From NCBI RefSeq assembly GCF_002803295.2, contig NZ_PGGB02000003.1, positions 210-32,209 on the forward strand: DNA of 32,000 nucleotides, written 5' to 3'. The stretch is from Caedibacter taeniospiralis (GTDB taxonomy: Bacteria > Pseudomonadota > Gammaproteobacteria > Francisellales > Francisellaceae). Shown piece after piece: positions 22,704-29,558 of the stretch. Within the stretch, counting starts at the first letter, position 1; every line of letters begins with the position of its first letter. The position numbers and the translations under genes were made by a program. The notes under the pieces are model-generated. The model did not search any database. It was not told where the DNA came from and saw only the letters and a program-made list of their open reading frames with translations.

Positions 22704-23124
22704 TCATAATGTTTTCTTCATGAAGTAACGTTTTTGTCCAGCAGGGCAATTCTCAAGAACACCGAAAATCTCATAACCATGCTTTAGATAGAAATCTTTT
22801 GCTTGGTGATTAAAGGTATCCAAATGGATCAACTTGGCTCCCATAGCTTCAGCATCAGCTTCAACTTGATTAAGTAATAAAACGCCCAATCCTTTATTTC
22901 GATAATTTTCATACACAAAAAGCACGTTAATAGCCAAGCATTCTCCTAGATAAAAACAACTTCTAATGCCAGCAATAATTAAGCCGTTCTTTGATAACAT
23001 AATCTTTCAAAACTTCAGTATCGCCATGAAATGAAACTTGCTGGGCAACAAAAGCATTGATTTTATTATTGAGCGCTTCTGCTTCTTCGCTTGTAGCGGG
23101 AGATAATTTGTAATCTGTCATCAT
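22704..23124 (-). pseudogene. GNAT acetyltransferase interrupted by a 1-nt frameshift
   Basis: Frame A (ATG 23124, ATGA overlap with the upstream stop) gives MMTDYKLSPATSEEAEALNNKINAFVAQQVSFHGDTEVLKDYVIKERLNYCWH*. Frame B (ORF 22704-23000) continues LSKNGLIIAGI...YENYRNKGLGVLLL...FYLKHGYE. Together they are colinear with the GNAT half of the 23121-24131 product. Confidence 0.6.
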
Positions 23125-24131
23125 AATACTTTCCTAAGAAAAATCCTTGAATGTTCACGCCAGTATTTTTTTATCTCGCCAATAGGTTGATAGCCATTTT
23201 TCAAATAAAAATCCTCGGCTTGAAAGTCCCATGTATCCAATGTTGAAAAAACACAGCCATATTTAATAGCTTCTTGTTCTGCCGCATTTATTAATTTTGT
23301 ACCGTAACCTTGGTTCCTGAGCTTTTGGTCAACCCATAATGTTTCCAGATAAACTGATTCACTATCAAACTGTGCTTGTATGCCGCCGAGAATTTCTCCC
23401 GAGTCATTTTTCAAAAACACTGAAAATTCTTTGTCTCTAGACTGTCCCATTAGGCGTTCATAATCAACGACCAAACCTTCTGCCACAGCATCTTTGTCGG
23501 CTTGACTTGGCGTGTGATCGACAATTATTTTGTATGCAGCGTTTGGTATCAATTCCGCAGTTTGATCATTAGTTCGAATAATCCAATGAGCTATAGATTC
23601 GGCAACCTGATTTATTGTCAATCTTGTTGTGTCAAAAATTTTAACAAATGCTTTTCTATCCCAAGCCTCCAACTGATCCCAGGGACTAAAAGACAACTCG
23701 TTCCAACAATCTTCTTTCAGTACATGCGGCGCCCACTGCGGATCGCGGGTGTGCATGCGAAGCCAAGCAGACCAGTTCAACATATTTTGATCCGCACCAT
23801 AGGTGTTGCGCTTTTTGAGGCGTTGAATACGTTCGAAATCGCTGACATCTAAAAGACAAAAGTTGATTTTATCTATTTGTTTGGCTGAAGGGCAGCTCAG
23901 TATTTCGCCTAAAACAATTTGACTCAGCAAGCAGGCATCTTTGCCTTCGCTCAATAATTTTTGAAGCCACTTTTCGGTGGATTCTTGACGCCATTTTTTA
24001 TCAGCACCTTCTGGTACACCGATGTCATCAAAATCATAAACGGCGATGCAATCCTTCAGCAGCTCTTTCAAATAAGGCATCACAGCCGTTTTACCGCTGC
24101 CACTGGCGCCGCCTATAAAATATAATCTCAT
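23121..24131 (-). CDS. P-loop kinase-like domain fused to GNAT acetyltransferase
   Basis: N-terminal Walker A YFIGGASGSGKT within a ~185-aa NTPase/kinase-like domain. C-terminal GNAT (LWVDQKLRNQGYGTKLINAAE...FYLKNGY). Confidence 0.75.
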   Translation of the reverse strand: MRLYFIGGASGSGKTAVMPYLKELLKDCIAVYDFDDIGVPEGADKKWRQESTEKWLQKLLSEGKDACLLSQIVLGEILSCPSAKQIDKINFCLLDVSDFERIQRLKKRNTYGADQNMLNWSAWLRMHTRDPQWAPHVLKEDCWNELSFSPWDQLEAWDRKAFVKIFDTTRLTINQVAESIAHWIIRTNDQTAELIPNAAYKIIVDHTPSQADKDAVAEGLVVDYERLMGQSRDKEFSVFLKNDSGEILGGIQAQFDSESVYLETLWVDQKLRNQGYGTKLINAAEQEAIKYGCVFSTLDTWDFQAEDFYLKNGYQPIGEIKKYWREHSRIFLRKVL

Positions 24132-24150
24132 AAGATCTTCCTCGTGTTAT

Positions 24151-25149
24151 TTAAGAGTCATACGCTCTCTCTATTGCACCATTCGGCAGAAAAACAGGCT
24201 GCAAGTGTTCAAAGCATTGCATCCGATCGTCACCACCTTCATCAGACAGAAAGATGTATTCACAATAGTCGCCGATGTCTTGGATGATACGTTCAAAACC
24301 ATAGTAGGCGATCGCATCCTGATTGATCTTTATTTGGTCATATCCCTGATAAAATAGTGATTCTTCTTCGTCAGGCGTTAGACCACTATCCCAAATGCCA
24401 GCGCCGATAAACATCAAATCACGCTCGACGGGAGCAAAGATGAGCGTATCCCAGTCAACAATATAAAGGGCGTTTTCTTTATCAACCATCAGGTTCCAGC
24501 CATGCATATCAGCGTGGCATAAAACATAGTCGAGGGGCTGTTTTTGGATCGCGATTGCAAGCTCTTCAGCGCGCTCCACGAGTTTAAGTATTTCGCACCT
24601 TTTTGATTTCAGAAACCGTGCCATTTTTACAGCAACAGGCTCTTCAAAAACTTCATTTTCAATGCGCATAAGAAATGCTTTAACGGTTTCTCGCCATTTT
24701 GAAGAAAACGTTTCCCGCGGTACATCTTTTGTTATTGATGAAGGAATATCGGTGCTATGCAGCCTTTTAATGGCCGCACCAAATTGAACCCACTGATCTT
24801 CTGATAGTTTGGTTTCTACGCCATTACTGCCTTCGACATAAGGGTACAGAATTGCCTTGAAAGATGCCAAGCTTGTCCAAAGTTGCCCTGTTTTGGTTGC
24901 AAGAGGTGGGATCACTTGCTTGATACCGAAATCCGCCAAGTGTTTTGGAACTGATACCGAAGCTTCTAAAAATTTACCGCTCCTTAACTTTAGAAAATAA
25001 TCCGTTTGATTGTTTGTTGTAACACGATAAACATCTGTACTGAAATCAGCGCCAAGGGGAAGAAATGAAATGGTTGCTATATCCAGTCCATATGCATCCT
25101 GCAAACACGCAATGATTTCTTGGTCTTTGAGATTAGGTTTTATTAGCAT
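24151..25149 (-). CDS. Aminoglycoside phosphotransferase, APH(9)-like
   Basis: 332 aa. YVLCHADMHGWNLMV (H.D....N) and LYIVDWDTLIFAPVERDLMFIG match, from memory, the corresponding blocks of Legionella APH(9)-Ia spectinomycin kinase. Confidence 0.8.
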   Translation of the reverse strand: MLIKPNLKDQEIIACLQDAYGLDIATISFLPLGADFSTDVYRVTTNNQTDYFLKLRSGKFLEASVSVPKHLADFGIKQVIPPLATKTGQLWTSLASFKAILYPYVEGSNGVETKLSEDQWVQFGAAIKRLHSTDIPSSITKDVPRETFSSKWRETVKAFLMRIENEVFEEPVAVKMARFLKSKRCEILKLVERAEELAIAIQKQPLDYVLCHADMHGWNLMVDKENALYIVDWDTLIFAPVERDLMFIGAGIWDSGLTPDEEESLFYQGYDQIKINQDAIAYYGFERIIQDIGDYCEYIFLSDEGGDDRMQCFEHLQPVFLPNGAIERAYDS

Positions 25150-25174
25150 GGTCTGTGTACCCCAATATCAGCAC

Positions 25175-25951
25175 TCATGCTTTCCTCGAATAAATATTGT
25201 TTTTAAACAGGGTCTCAAACCCAAGTTTTTGATAGACTCCGAGCCCTGAATCGGAGGACTCTAAAAAGCAATGACGAGCGCCTAATTTTTTGGTCTCTAA
25301 CAGCACATAACGCATGAGATGCGTTGCATATCCTTTGCCTTGAAATTCAGGCAAAGTTCCCAGATCATCGATCCTTGCAATGGCGTTGTCGCACATTGAT
25401 AGAGTAATTGATGCGATTGGTTTTTTCTGTTTGTACAAGCTGAAATGGCGAAGGTTAATATTCTTTTTTAAGGCATTTTCATGGGTTACTGCATAAATTG
25501 AACTAATTTCAATGGTTGATTCAAATGCCCCTATCAACGGCGTCATCCAATCATTTAATTTTTCGTCGTTGCCTCGAATAATTATTTCATCAAAGAAAGC
25601 TGGCAGAGCGGTGGCTCTGAAGTCATCTAATTTAACCGCCATCGAAACTGATTTTCCCGTTTGATGATAACCCATACTACTAAAAACACCTTCTACATCA
25701 GAGGTACAAAACTCTTGTGGGATGACAACAACAAAGGAAAGGCTGCTTTGGTCGTAAAACTGCTTGCCCTTGTTCAAAATCTTATCAAGGGAAGCGGTAT
25801 TTTTTGTGATATAAACAAGATTTAAATCTGCCACTGGAACCCCTGTCATATAGGCATTAGCCCTGTTGTCCAGATTTAAGCATTTTGAGGAAATGCCTCT
25901 GAAAAAATAATCCTCGACCTGGCGGTATAAATTTACTAGTGGAGCGTTCAT
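25175..25951 (-). CDS. GNAT-family acetyltransferase (258 aa)
   Basis: C-terminal GNAT core LPEFQGKGYATHLMRYVLLETKKLGARHCFLESSDSGLGVYQKLGFE. First gene of the same-strand cluster. Confidence 0.75.
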   Translation of the reverse strand: MNAPLVNLYRQVEDYFFRGISSKCLNLDNRANAYMTGVPVADLNLVYITKNTASLDKILNKGKQFYDQSSLSFVVVIPQEFCTSDVEGVFSSMGYHQTGKSVSMAVKLDDFRATALPAFFDEIIIRGNDEKLNDWMTPLIGAFESTIEISSIYAVTHENALKKNINLRHFSLYKQKKPIASITLSMCDNAIARIDDLGTLPEFQGKGYATHLMRYVLLETKKLGARHCFLESSDSGLGVYQKLGFETLFKNNIYSRKA

Positions 25952-26026
25952 ATTTCTTGCTAACGTAAATCAAATGAAGTGATGATAAATCAATTTCCAG
26001 ACAGTTACGACAGATTTTGAGTTTAC

Positions 26027-26395
26027 TATGTCCTAAAAGTAACGAAATATGACACTTTTAGGACATGCTAGACGCATTCATGTCCTTTAGGTTTCATTAT
26101 TCGTAACCCAAAGGACATATTGATCATAATCGCTAAATTACGGTTGGTTACACACTTTCTAGAGATAGCATGTCCGTATAATTACAGTATTTGTAACCTT
26201 AGCCACATGCCTGATCATATATTGGCAAACTTCAGCTATTACTCGCATGTTTTAAGTTTATTGTGTGGCTATAATTACATTATTAGTAATTATACATACA
26301 TGCTGATACAAGAAATTAAACATTTTGCTTGCGCTTTTCTGAGAATAGACGTATCATGCTCTTATAATTACACTATTTGTAATTTTGGAAGCATG
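26027..26395. promoter_or_regulatory. Array of five 41-bp palindromic modules upstream of abiEi (candidate operator array)
   Basis: Modules at 26027-26067, 26079-26119, 26169-26209, 26262-26302 and 26355-26395 share the register (C/T)ATG-N9-5mer-N5-5mer-N9-CAT(G/A). The module-4 left box reads TGTG. Inner core of the last three is ATAATTACA-N5-(T/A)GTAA, each including TATAAT. Centres are spaced 52, 90, 93 and 93 bp. Confidence 0.6.
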
Positions 26396-26403
26396 GCAAT
26401 CAT

Positions 26404-27210
26404 ATGAATCTACAGTCTTACATAAAACAGCTCAGGAAATATGGGAAACGAGCCTTCACGATTGAAGAGATTTTGGAAGAATTCAAAGTATCTCGCAATT
26501 ATGCCAGGGTGGCTTTATATCGCCTTATTCAAAGTGGCGACCTTGTCTCCCCGGCTAAAGCTTTTTATGTCATCGTGCCTCCTGAATATCAAACATACGG
26601 TTGTATACCCGCAGAACAACTTATTCCCATACTCATGAAGCATCTAAATACCGATTATTATGTTGCCCTATTATCAGCAGGGTTGTTTCATGGAGCAACC
26701 CATCAAAAACCCGCTAGGTTCCAAGTCATGTTGAATAAAAGGATGAGCGGTAATTTGGTTTTTGGTGATGTTGAAATAGAGTTTATTTACAAAAATTCAC
26801 TCTCTGGGCTTCCAACTCAAGATTTCGTTGTGGATACTGGCTATCTTAAAGTTGCATCACCTGAGCTCACTGCAATCGACTTACTTAATTACCCCTCTCA
26901 TGCGGGCGGGCTTAACCACATAGCAACCGTTTTTTCTGAATTAGCTGAAGCTATAAATTCGGAAAAATTGATAGAACTTGCCGAAAAGATCAATGCCAGA
27001 TACCAATTACAACGTATTGGTTATATTTTAGAGAAAATTGATGTCATGGATGAAGATAAAAAAGCTCAAATCATCGAGGCTTTAGAAGCTTTTTTAAAGG
27101 GAAAAATGAAATATTACATACCCATCGCTTCTGAAATAGAAAAAATGGGTTACCCGAGATCCAAACGATGGAAAATAATAGAAAATACTGAAGTAGAGAG
27201 CGATTTATGA
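26404..27210 (+). CDS. abiEi: AbiEi-family type IV toxin-antitoxin antitoxin / transcriptional regulator
   Basis: 268 aa. N-terminal wHTH-like FTIEEILEEFKVSRNYARVALYRLIQSGDLV. Typical AbiEi length. ATGA overlap with the downstream AbiEii gene. Confidence 0.8.
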   Translation: MNLQSYIKQLRKYGKRAFTIEEILEEFKVSRNYARVALYRLIQSGDLVSPAKAFYVIVPPEYQTYGCIPAEQLIPILMKHLNTDYYVALLSAGLFHGATHQKPARFQVMLNKRMSGNLVFGDVEIEFIYKNSLSGLPTQDFVVDTGYLKVASPELTAIDLLNYPSHAGGLNHIATVFSELAEAINSEKLIELAEKINARYQLQRIGYILEKIDVMDEDKKAQIIEALEAFLKGKMKYYIPIASEIEKMGYPRSKRWKIIENTEVESDL

Positions 27211-27992
27211 TCCCAAATATTTTTATACAAAATTGGTCTAATCATGTTAAATGGCAAACACCAGCCCAAATTGAACAAGATCTCATTATAAGCAGAGCGT
27301 TAGTAGATTTGTACAACGATCCACACATCAAAGACGCTTTAGTTTTCCGCGGCGGTACGGCGCTCAACAAATTATTTATTAACCCGCCGTCTAGGTATAG
27401 CGAAGATATCGATTTCGTGCAGAAAAACGCTGATCCAATCGGCCAAACAATTAATGCGATTCGTGAGGTGCTCAAACCATGGTTAGGTGAACCAAAATGG
27501 AAAATTACTCAAAGAAGTGCAAAGCTAATTTACAAATACGAATCCATAAACAAGTCTGCATCAAAACTAAAAATCGAAATAAATACGACTGAACATTTTC
27601 AAGTGCTGCCCTTAAAAAAGGTTCCTTTCTCTATGGATTCAGATTGGTTCAAGGGGACGGCGGATATTATTACTTACGAAATGGATGAGCTGATGGCGAC
27701 TAAGTTACGCGCTCTTTATCAGCGTCGCAAAGGGCGGGACTTATTTGATGTATGGTATGTGGCAGATCGCAATTTAATCAACTTGAATCGAGTTTTTGAT
27801 ATTTTTCATCAGTATTGCACTTATAACGATTTGAAGATCACAGGCGAAGAATTTTTACAGAATCTTCAGCTTAAAAAGGATCATCGTGACTTTCATATGG
27901 ATATGAGTGTTTTATTGCCATCGAAATTGCATTGGAATTTCGAAGAAGCCTATCAATTCGTTGTAGATAACGTCATTAGCAGGCTGCCGTAA
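27207..27992 (+). CDS. abiEii: AbiEii/AbiGii-family nucleotidyltransferase toxin (DUF1814)
   Basis: FRGGTALNKLF...RYSEDIDFV NTase motif and later KLRALYQRRKGRDLFDVWY. 261 aa. Confidence 0.85.
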   Translation: MIPNIFIQNWSNHVKWQTPAQIEQDLIISRALVDLYNDPHIKDALVFRGGTALNKLFINPPSRYSEDIDFVQKNADPIGQTINAIREVLKPWLGEPKWKITQRSAKLIYKYESINKSASKLKIEINTTEHFQVLPLKKVPFSMDSDWFKGTADIITYEMDELMATKLRALYQRRKGRDLFDVWYVADRNLINLNRVFDIFHQYCTYNDLKITGEEFLQNLQLKKDHRDFHMDMSVLLPSKLHWNFEEAYQFVVDNVISRLP

Positions 27993-28098
27993 ATGCAAAG
28001 AATCAAACAGTACAGCAAGGTCTCAACAAGCCTCGCATGCCTGAGTAATGAGAAACTAAGAAAGATTTTGGCAGATAGCAATCTGAGAGGCCACAAAA

Positions 28099-28992
28099 AT
28101 GGACATTAAAATTGAGACTAAACGTCTATCATTACGTTTATTGACTAAAAATGATCTTGATAATTTACAAAAATTAAACGCAGATCCAGATGTAAGGGCA
28201 TTTTTTCCAGACGGAACACAAAACAGGGAACAAACAAAGAAAAGGATGCTGGAGCTAATCAATAACTATAAGGACCATAAATTACCCGGCTTCATAATAT
28301 TAGAAAAAGAATCCCAGACTTTTTTAGGACGTTGTGGTTTCTCATTGTTAGAAAATAATGAAGTAGAAGTCGGGTATTTGCTGCATAAAAATTATTGGGG
28401 CAAAGGGTATGCTACTGAAGCTTTAAATACATTGCTTAATTGGGCGAAGAAAAATATTAACCGACATTATATTATAGCATTTGCTCCCACACCGCACGTT
28501 GCATCACAGCGTGTAATGGAGAAGTGCGGTATGATTTTATATAAAACTGATATTGCCCATGGAGTGGAATGCAAATTCTATAAAATTAAAAATACTCAAA
28601 TCAAAGCACGCATAAGTCATGTAGCACTTTTGATAACAGACTTAAAAAAAGCAAAGCATTTTTATGGCAATATCTTAGGACTCTCTGAACTAAAACGACC
28701 ACCATTTTTTATTAAAGGACTCTGGTATGATTTGGGTGACCTTGAATTACACCTTATGCTTTATGAGCAAGCAGAACAACCTCAAGTACACCCCTTAAAT
28801 GAAACCGTGCAAGCGCATTTTGCCCTATCCATGCCAGAGCTTCAGTTAAACATAATTTTGGAAAAATTAAAAACCGCTGGTATAGAACTGATTACAGAGC
28901 CGTCCCTATCACCTGCAGGGGTATTGCAGGTTTTCTTTTACGATTTTGACAAAAATATGATTGAGCTTAATAATGAACCGGAGACAACATGA
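28099..28992 (+). CDS. RimJ/RimL-like GNAT acetyltransferase fused to a VOC (glyoxalase/bleomycin-resistance) domain
   Basis: N-terminal IETKRLSLRLLTKNDLDNL...YWGKGYATEAL...ASQRVMEKCGM (Acetyltransf_3-like). C-terminal ISHVALLITDLKKAKHFYGNILGL...ELHLM...HFAL...MIELN (VOC-like). Confidence 0.75.
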   Translation: MDIKIETKRLSLRLLTKNDLDNLQKLNADPDVRAFFPDGTQNREQTKKRMLELINNYKDHKLPGFIILEKESQTFLGRCGFSLLENNEVEVGYLLHKNYWGKGYATEALNTLLNWAKKNINRHYIIAFAPTPHVASQRVMEKCGMILYKTDIAHGVECKFYKIKNTQIKARISHVALLITDLKKAKHFYGNILGLSELKRPPFFIKGLWYDLGDLELHLMLYEQAEQPQVHPLNETVQAHFALSMPELQLNIILEKLKTAGIELITEPSLSPAGVLQVFFYDFDKNMIELNNEPETT

Positions 28993-29558
28993 CCATCATT
29001 ATTGAAACAGAAAGGCTTATTTTAAGAACTTGGAAAGAAGAGGATGCGGATGGCTATTTTCAAATCAACCAAGATCCAAAAGTGATCGAGTTTTTACGTG
29101 GACCATTGATGATGGAGCAAGTGAATGATTTTATCCCTGCGGTTAATAATCATCAAGATAAACACGGTTACACATTATGGGCAGCCTGCCTGAAGAAAAC
29201 TGGTGAATTGATAGGCTTTATCGGTCTAAATTACACTAATTTTGAATCACATTTTACTCCTGCAGTTGAAGTAGGTTGGCGTTTAGGATCGCAATATTGG
29301 GGTAAAGGCTTTGCCACGGAGGGAGCTAAAGCTTCCTTGGAATATGGGTTTAAACAGTGCGGTCTTAAAGAAATTGTTTCTTTTACCGTGCCAGCTAATA
29401 TTCGCTCTATTAGGGTTATGGAAAAAATAGGATTAAAACGTGATTTAAATGGCGATTTTGCTCATCCTAAATTAGCTGCGGATCATCCTTTATCACAACA
29501 TATTTTATATCGCTTGAATGTGGATGAATATTTGAAATTAAATCAACATATTTTATGA
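28989..29558 (+). CDS. RimJ/RimL-like GNAT acetyltransferase
   Basis: IIETERLILRTWKEEDADGYF...YWGKGFATEGA...RSIRVMEKIGL. ATGA overlap with the preceding gene. Confidence 0.8.
   Translation: MTIIIETERLILRTWKEEDADGYFQINQDPKVIEFLRGPLMMEQVNDFIPAVNNHQDKHGYTLWAACLKKTGELIGFIGLNYTNFESHFTPAVEVGWRLGSQYWGKGFATEGAKASLEYGFKQCGLKEIVSFTVPANIRSIRVMEKIGLKRDLNGDFAHPKLAADHPLSQHILYRLNVDEYLKLNQHIL

Follow-up and report, generated by a model that had tools for sequence, protein, structure and literature searches.

Described AbiE operators and the leader under study

AbiE systems are widespread abortive-infection toxin-antitoxin modules. To our knowledge, their regulation has been studied in two systems only, and the operators are adjacent in both. 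Here, we analyze the leader of an abiEi/abiEii operon on a stretch of DNA from Caedibacter taeniospiralis (contig NZ_PGGB02000003.1 of assembly GCF_002803295.2, positions 210 to 32,209 of the forward strand; the whole 32,000 nucleotides are called the window), in which five palindromic modules precede the antitoxin gene abiEi.

The AbiEi antitoxin of Streptococcus agalactiae represses abiE via one inverted-repeat pair, TGTTGCTTTTA-N27-TAAAAGCAACA, that spans the promoter, and transcription starts 26 nt before the ATG (PMC3985639). Rv2827c of Mycobacterium tuberculosis, an AbiEi homologue, binds two contiguous inverted-repeat pairs (IR1-IR4) with tuned affinities and negative cooperativity (PMC7319586). 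The initial annotation of the window took AbiE to be known with a single repeat pair, which the two pairs of Rv2827c correct. Because of these two pairs, the presence of several inverted-repeat pairs at abiEi is not new in kind. Three features are new at the locus studied here: as many as five pairs, their spread across 370 bp, and a distal operator that lacks a promoter and keeps a fixed distance of 93 bp. A literature search found no paper that links AbiEi to looping or describes the leader of the window. For the geometry, the lac operators offer a comparison, with O1 at +11 and O3 92 bp upstream, and lac looping has also provided an in vivo estimate of the helical repeat of 11.1-11.6 bp per turn (PMC1762422).

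Five palindromic modules in the abiEi leader

The abiEi leader at 26027-26395 (about 370 bp) consists of five 41-bp palindromic modules, M1 to M5, and the spacers between them. All five follow one frame: (C/T)(A/G)TG, 14 nt, a 5-nt centre, 14 nt and CAT(G/A).

26027 to 26067, M1: outermost palindrome, left edge of the conserved abiE unit
26079 to 26119, M2: family-consensus outer arms, GTTTCA/CGTAAC core
26169 to 26209, M3: third palindrome, cognate in type (TATAATTACA), located 93-94 bp upstream of M4
26262 to 26302, M4: distal palindrome, proposed to be an auxiliary operator, 93 bp upstream of M5
26355 to 26395, M5: proximal palindrome, proposed primary AbiEi operator, taking in the edge of the -10, the site where transcription is predicted to start and the 5' untranslated region

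With 18-nt arms and a 5-nt centre, the arms of M1 to M5 are complementary at 14, 14, 12, 12, and 14 of 18 positions, respectively. The module centres at 26047, 26099, 26189, 26282, and 26375 give spacings of 52, 90, 93, and 93 bp, and the modules are separated by gaps of 11, 49, 52, and 52 bp. The left box of M4 is TGTG, TATAAT is present in each of M3, M4, and M5, and 8 nt separate the end of M5 from the abiEi ATG at 26404. The initial annotation had described the modules with these coordinates, frame, spacings and details, and all of them were borne out by a check of the sequence.

Such an array is not expected by chance. Within the 452-bp intergenic region, five palindromes with at least 12 of 18 complementary positions are observed compared with a mean of 0.28 in shuffled sequences (maximum 3, n = 3000), while the other 31.5 kb of the window contain 14 palindromes of this quality, which is about the chance density. 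ATGTCC-N15-35-GGACAT is found in M1 and M2 only (0.03 expected). A repeat search of the window recovers the 93/93 family as well as the M1/M2 palindromes. The ten half-sites form one family, and the 32-kb window contains no further match above 13 bits to a matrix trained on them.

No 93-bp tandem repeat is called by Tandem Repeats Finder. The spacers are not significantly alike (z = 0.3 for spacer 3-4 against spacer 4-5), with about 14 nt in common between spacers 2-3 and 3-4. On both counts, a recent 93-bp tandem duplication was rejected, and what recurs is, as judged by these comparisons, the module together with a spacer length rather than a recently duplicated 93-bp unit.

Distribution of the modules among related loci

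About 100 related loci with an AbiEi 53-100% identical to that of the window were compared. They derive from a scan of a genome collection (22 loci, AbiEi 82-100% identical), a metagenome scan with the family alignment (80 additional loci, 53-98%) and look-ups of graded homologues (six more loci). The family consensus of the half-site is CATGTCCTTAAAGTTACA, in which A2, T3, G4, T5, C6, C7, T14, and C17 are nearly invariant. With the family-wide half-site matrix, paired sites are found solely within 650 nt upstream of abiEi, and not one paired site occurs in 292,313 other bases at either a strict or a relaxed threshold.

A scan for 18+5+18 palindromes that makes no use of the motif gives pile-ups at -29 and -122 in the clades with at least 90% and with 61-64% AbiEi identity, while the 59-60% clade has them at -21 and -114 and the 56-58% clade at -20 and -103/-101, positions that refinement of the start codons shifts to -23 and -106/-104 in the latter clade. 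The module register is kept in homologous loci, at fixed positions before the start codon. Nearly all related loci have a proximal module, centred at -29 or, in distant clades, at -20 to -23. The number of modules varies: where 450 nt or more of upstream sequence is available, none is found in 10 loci, one in 16, two in 32, three in 12, four in 6, and five in 10, so that the window has the maximum count. The class without modules mostly has palindromes in the same frame with diverged sequence.

Individual loci illustrate how far the leader can vary. In L013 (1-165), whose AbiEi is 95% identical, the whole leader is lost: homology begins at 26390, and all modules and the predicted promoter are missing. 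In L030 (1-2307), two abiE operons diverge from one 468-bp intergenic region that they share; their AbiEi proteins are 66 and 48% identical to that of the window, and a module of the window's palindrome family is located at -29 of the 66% copy only.

A conserved, predicted promoter at the proximal module

A conserved sigma-70 promoter of the form TTGnnn-17-TATCAT is found at 26329-26357, with 17 nt between -35 and -10, and is overlapped by M5. The signals of this region are as follows.

26329 to 26334, + strand: predicted -35 TTGCGC (family consensus TTGACT), offset -26 from the first base of the module
26352 to 26357, + strand: predicted -10 TATCAT, offset -3, its last 3 nt (CAT) being the first 3 nt of M5
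26339 to 26368, + strand: alternative promoter-like CTGAGA-18-TATAAT, its -10 inside the left arm of M5; the sole + strand match of a consensus scan (10/12)
26387 to 26391, + strand: possible Shine-Dalgarno sequence GGAAG inside the right arm of M5, as read from the sequence

Among 73 unique proximal upstream sequences, the best offset for the -35 is -26 (a mean of 3.71 of 6 matches vs. a median of 1.62 over all offsets), and the best offset for the -10 (TAT(C/T)AT) is -3 (a mean of 4.58 of 6 vs. a median of 2.0). The -35/-10 pair is present in 51% of these proximal sequences compared with 2% of the distal ones. Transcription is predicted to start at about 26364, which would place the centre of M5 at about +12 and that of M4 at about -82. 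In distant clades, the right arm AAGGACATG of the proximal module ends 0-2 nt before the ATG.

The initial annotation considered transcription starts at every TATAAT, which these data do not support: a conserved -35 accompanies the proximal module only, the conserved -10 is the TATCAT at the left edge of the module, and no -35 was found for the TATAATs of M3 and M4. TATAAT within the operator is specific to the clade of the window and absent from the operators of other clades. Because the hexamer is clade-specific, the inner CTGAGA-18-TATAAT is not the conserved promoter.

Constraint on module sequence, spacing and type

Mean pairwise identities among the ten five-module loci differ between the parts of the leader.

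M5: 0.98
M2: 0.975
M1: 0.92
M3: 0.89
M4: 0.88
Spacers: 0.86-0.875
abiEi codon position 3: 0.88

M3 and M4 have conserved inner cores and variable outer positions 5-8. At the left edge of M1, identity falls from 0.92 to 0.57.

For 35 spacer clusters, any two of which share less than 80% identity, the distance from the centre of the proximal module to that of the next one was tabulated. Twenty clusters have 93 bp, three have 90-92 bp, ten have 81-83 bp, and the other two have 180 or 203 bp. Shared ancestry contributes to these counts, as to those on co-variation below, and the lineages are not phylogenetically independent. The 93-bp class comprises AbiEi identities of 59-100% and spacers that cannot be aligned apart from the -35. 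At the upstream modules, relatives that are at least 94% identical already vary by 1 bp (M2-M3 90/91 bp, M3-M4 93/94 bp). The length of 93 bp between M4 and M5 is thus constrained in lineages that have diverged, as would fit repression by cooperative binding or by a loop. The 93-bp and 81-83-bp classes differ by 10-12 bp or about one helical turn, and distances of 90-92 bp are found as well. In L048 (centre -70) and L059 (centre -85) of the 62-64% clade, the distal-proximal spacer is itself a palindrome of the 41-bp frame (14 and 16 of 18 positions), located around the -35 box and unrelated in sequence to the operator family.

Distal and proximal modules also agree in type. At the variable half-site positions, they are 76% identical within a locus vs. 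55% across clades, a value that none of 5000 permutations reaches, and the type of the distal operator matches that of the proximal one within each locus. A joint change of type would be expected if one co-evolving protein reads both operators.

A possible multi-operator mechanism of AbiEi

The modules are probably AbiEi operators with M5 as the primary one. Each 41-bp module would represent one inverted-repeat pair of two 18-nt half-sites CATGTCCTTAAAGTTACA set 5 nt apart, would take two AbiEi molecules and would be the equivalent of the IR1-IR2 pair of S. agalactiae abiE. M5 would extend from inside the -10 over the predicted start and the leader to the ribosome-binding region. Because it covers the -10 edge, the predicted start and the leader, AbiEi on M5 would exclude RNA polymerase, as its position and the paradigm of the family suggest. 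M4 might serve as an auxiliary operator that raises the occupancy of M5 by protein contacts across a short 93-bp loop or bend, a step to which three features point, namely a conserved spacing, an operator type that matches that of M5 and the lack of a promoter of its own; taken by itself, this looping step is plausible and yet somewhat doubtful. M3, which shares the operator type of M5 and M4, as well as M2 and M1 could be further sites that add to cooperativity, permit other loops or keep a reservoir of AbiEi nearby, which is conjecture. A more comprehensive scenario would add to the phased auxiliary operator that loops from 93 (or 81-83) bp upstream onto the promoter operator a recombining cassette of operator units, the number of which (0-5) tunes the set-point, and heterotypic M1 and M2 that allow cross-regulation by AbiEi paralogues of other clades. 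In this complete form it is rather unlikely.

Comparison with S. agalactiae shows a common ground plan. In both cases, a type IV AbiEi/AbiEii bicistronic operon has an inverted-repeat pair that overlaps the core promoter and the start, which is a predicted one in the window (PMC3985639). The best-conserved operator bases lie in the outer arms, and the layout is the same here (e.g., M1 ATGTCCTAAAAGT-N13-ACTTTTAGGACAT). In contrast to the single pair and the 49-bp operator of S. agalactiae, the window has five pairs and a 41-bp module; the S. agalactiae operator covers the -35, whereas the operator here starts at the -10, and a conserved second operator is located 93 bp upstream. The two AbiEi proteins share 20% identity in a fold alignment and are too diverged for a sequence match. 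The promoter of Rv2827c resembles the leader of the window in that more than one inverted-repeat pair is located upstream of an abiEi-type gene and the sites differ in sequence quality (PMC7319586). However, the pairs of Rv2827c are 4 bp apart and lie within -1 to -131, while up to five pairs are dispersed with gaps of 11-52 bp over 370 bp here, and the proximal-distal distance is itself conserved. With lac O1/O3, the leader shares a primary palindromic operator at about +11 to +12 and a promoter-less auxiliary operator about 92-93 bp upstream, near -82, relative to a start that is predicted in our case (PMC1762422). The protein families are unrelated, and the analogy is geometric only. All in all, the array is real, non-random and evolutionarily conserved and, as far as sequence comparison can tell, a larger version of the inverted-repeat scheme of AbiEi autoregulation.

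Several points weigh against this mechanism. We know of no AbiEi oligomers that bridge sites 93 bp apart. The reported cooperativity of AbiEi acts between adjacent half-sites and is negative in the case of Rv2827c (PMC7319586). Auxiliary sites are dispensable, as 16 loci whose upstream sequence is long enough contain no module but the proximal one. The shared ancestry behind the spacing and co-variation counts belongs here as well, and something in the spacer unrelated to looping could lie behind the 93-bp constraint. Helical phasing of the whole array, another element of the initial annotation, is unsupported: the spacings of the upstream module pairs are non-periodic (R = 0.36, a value reached by 2372 of 5000 random sets or 47%), and a Rayleigh-type test for the whole array is significant solely through the proximal-distal pairs. 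What stands of the multi-operator leader described there is a conserved array specific to abiEi leaders and the 93-bp constraint between M4 and M5. On the side of the protein, the match of the abiEi product to the N-terminal winged-helix family AbiEi_4 of Pfam (18.3 bits) is below the 25-bit cut-off, and an AlphaFold2 model of AbiEi based on 32 homologues reaches a mean predicted local distance difference test score (pLDDT) of 69, which is moderate only. Finally, M1 does not co-vary with the AbiEi protein and resembles the proximal operators of the 57-58% clade, while M2 shares 85-92% identity with both the proximal and the distal operators found in the 58-59% AbiEi clade. M1 and M2 may thus not be sites for the cognate AbiEi.

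M1, M2 and rival explanations

The upstream half of the leader has a history of its own. M1 is always the outermost module and is 83-98% identical in 26 loci with AbiEi identities of 58-100%, and its conservation takes in an asymmetric 13-nt centre and the orientation. M2 is the second most conserved module (97.5% among five-module loci). In L055, the block M1-M2-M3 is 92% identical, while the AbiEi of this locus is 63% identical, and the M3-homologous module occupies the position of the distal operator, 93 bp from the proximal one. The upstream half thus appears to behave as a block that is conserved and exchanged separately. Cross-regulation by paralogous AbiEi proteins would be an attractive reading. 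Carried further, only M3-M5, the modules of the cognate type, would be AbiEi sites, while M1 and M2 would be bound by AbiEi paralogues of other clades that are encoded elsewhere in the genome or by an unrelated host factor, and the upstream half would be exchanged separately. The resemblance of M1 and M2 to operators of other clades, the high identity of M1 across loci and of the block in L055, the conservation of both modules above the neutral level and the two abiE operons side by side in L030 speak in favor of this explanation. However, there is no second abiE within the 32-kb window. Furthermore, ATGTCC, T14, and C17 are common to all module types and the recognition-helix region of AbiEi is nearly invariant across the family, so that the cognate AbiEi may bind all types. 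We regard a restriction of AbiEi to M3-M5 as unlikely. It is quite improbable that M5 alone works and that M1-M4 have no function and were left behind by recombination or duplication between abiE leaders. Module numbers of 0-5 among close relatives, the 16 loci with a proximal module alone, blocks clearly exchanged between clades and the approximately neutral evolution of the outer arms of M3 and M4 could be accounted for in this way. Yet the spacers (0.86) and codon position 3 (0.88) are less conserved than M2 (0.975) and M1 (0.92) as well as the inner cores of M3 and M4, the distal position at 93 bp is retained in 20 diverged spacer lineages, and distal operators switch type jointly with the proximal ones.

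If the palindromes formed RNA hairpins in the abiE leader, an anti-Shine-Dalgarno GTCCT of the left arm could pair with AAGGA of the right arm for translational control or transcript stabilization. The proximal right arm does have a Shine-Dalgarno-like AAGGA or GGAAG and ends 0-2 nt before the ATG in distant clades, and M5, read as RNA from the sequence, pairs at 16 of 18 positions if G-U is counted. However, the left arm should be largely untranscribed because the conserved promoter puts the predicted start inside the module. There is also no strand asymmetry, since arm mismatches compatible with G-U are equally frequent on both strands (162 on the + strand vs. 156 on the - strand). Specific bases are conserved in both half-sites rather than pairing as such, and the distal modules have no gene to control. 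A permissive Rfam search gave one meaningless microRNA-like match on M2, and the leader is devoid of a terminator-like T-run. RNA hairpins are accordingly highly improbable. Modules that represent a mobile or recombination element, such as repetitive extragenic palindromes (REP), miniature inverted-repeat transposable elements (MITE), attC-like sites or cassette ends, are hardly credible: M1 forms the left boundary of a unit common to unrelated genomic contexts and the unit occurs in metagenome-assembled genomes (MAGs) labelled as several orders, but there are no copies away from abiEi leaders in 292 kb, a matching palindrome at the right end is lacking, and the modules keep a fixed position with respect to both ATG and promoter. 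Integron attC sites in particular were discarded because the neighboring GNAT and APH genes are packed 20-26 nt apart and leave no room for them. Viral contigs scanned for CATGTCCT-N25-AGGACATG gave two chance matches with no abiE nearby. Almost no credence is left for a 95-amino-acid protein encoded by 26120-26407, with a thrice-repeated C-x-YNY motif and translationally coupled to abiEi, which the initial annotation had offered as a coding alternative. The open reading frame (ORF) is present as described, with a TTG start and an ATGA overlap with abiEi, and 93 bp correspond to 31 codons. In relatives at least 91% identical, however, the frame is open for 16-111 codons with varying starts, 95 codons are kept only in the window and L005, and the overlapping TGA is lost in L012 and L038. 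The M3-M4 spacing of 93/94 bp in close relatives shifts the frame, and other clades have spacings of 81-83 bp. The product has no Pfam match, and its repeated peptide is the translation of the conserved DNA core TATAATTACA.

The abiE genes and the boundaries of the unit

Downstream of the array, the following genes make up the conserved unit.

26404 to 27210, + strand: abiEi, antitoxin, predicted winged-helix repressor (268 amino acids), by Pfam AbiEi_1 and fold matches
27207 to 27992, + strand: abiEii, DUF1814 nucleotidyltransferase toxin (261 amino acids), its start overlapping the abiEi stop (ATGA)
27993 to 28087, + strand: right boundary of the conserved abiE unit, a leftover 5' portion of a kinase-like third gene; homology ends at 28074-28087 in L003, L007, L008, L009, L010, and L014

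The abiEi product matches the AbiEi C-terminal domain PF09407 (AbiEi_1; COG5340 lineage) with E = 8.9e-36 and 123.7 bits against a cut-off of 22.2, and the abiEii product matches PF08843 (AbiEii) with E = 4.9e-38 over profile positions 2-237 of 238. These matches confirm the identity assigned to the downstream gene in the initial annotation, and the two genes are, by these profiles, an intact abiEi/abiEii bicistronic pair of an AbiE type IV toxin-antitoxin system. In the AlphaFold2 model, residues 3-56 of AbiEi form three helices followed by strands, with low confidence in the wing region. The top matches of the model to PDB structures in Foldseek are 6y8q_A (S. agalactiae AbiEi, E = 3.1e-4) and 1zel_A (M. 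tuberculosis Rv2827c). A sequence search of AbiEi against the PDB with phmmer returned nothing relevant, so the kinship to solved AbiEi structures is at the level of the fold only.

In close relatives, homology to the window sets in at 26020-26029 (the left edge of M1) or at a point further inside and extends to 27988-28087. Neighboring genes differ between loci, and those on the left include RNase T, an ion channel and others. Because homology starts at the left edge of M1 and the flanking genes vary, the leader is part of the abiE unit and not of the divergent GNAT operon, and the control shared with that operon, which the initial annotation had considered, loses its ground. In many relatives, other conserved palindromes, TTTCGATAATAAT...ATTATTATCAGAA and TTATCGATT...TTTCGATAA, which are absent from the window, are found just outside M1. 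This set is present in L006-L009, L011, L014, L020, and L035, in the 100 nt upstream of M1 (e.g., L009 2500-2620), within an unusually long non-coding region of 0.8-1.1 kb before abiEi.

At the right end, the window has a 37-codon ORF (27993-28106) whose start lies at the stop of abiEii (TAAATG). It represents the 5' part of a gene for a 348-amino-acid kinase-like protein (weak Pkinase match, E = 9e-5), cut in the window at about 28085. In L009 and L014, this gene comes after abiEii, its start overlapping the abiEii stop, and L003 and L007 share the same sequence downstream of abiEii. The third gene is intact in these four loci, where abiE is apparently a three-gene operon. In L008, a tRNA-like 3' end directly follows the abiE unit. 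abiE repeatedly occurs among GNAT and APH/kinase-like genes (window 22704-25951 and 28099-29558; L025-L028, L014) in otherwise unrelated contexts, with an APH(6)-like gene overlapping the abiEii stop in L025 and L026. This association recurs across AbiEi clades 70-100% identical and may have a functional meaning, either as a defense or stress island or by stabilization through the toxin-antitoxin pair. L001 (MAG contig GCA_031972495.1, 99.7% identity) is without the GNAT-glyoxalase fusion gene of the window (28099-28992), and abiEii is directly followed by a 189-amino-acid GNAT. The fusion gene is a presence/absence polymorphism that adjoins the abiE unit (window 27994-28987 vs. L001). AbiEi proteins 82-100% identical to that of the window occur in MAGs labelled Legionellales, Coxiellaceae, Francisellaceae, Rickettsiaceae, Marinamargulisbacteria, Oligoflexia, and Alphaproteobacteria, which reflects either recent horizontal transfer of the unit or binning errors.

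Implications for AbiE regulation

The AbiE clade of the window is abundant in freshwater Legionellales-like genomes, and its leaders form a natural series with 0-5 operator pairs and a strictly kept proximal-distal distance of 93 bp. This series bears on the cooperativity of antitoxin repressors at a distance, on the relation of operator number to the level and noise of a toxin-antitoxin system and on cross-talk of paralogous AbiE systems via common operator types. In practical terms, a defined operator consensus and a predicted promoter are gained for the annotation of abiE loci. If M4 does act through a loop, AbiEi would be the first toxin-antitoxin repressor with a lac-like loop.

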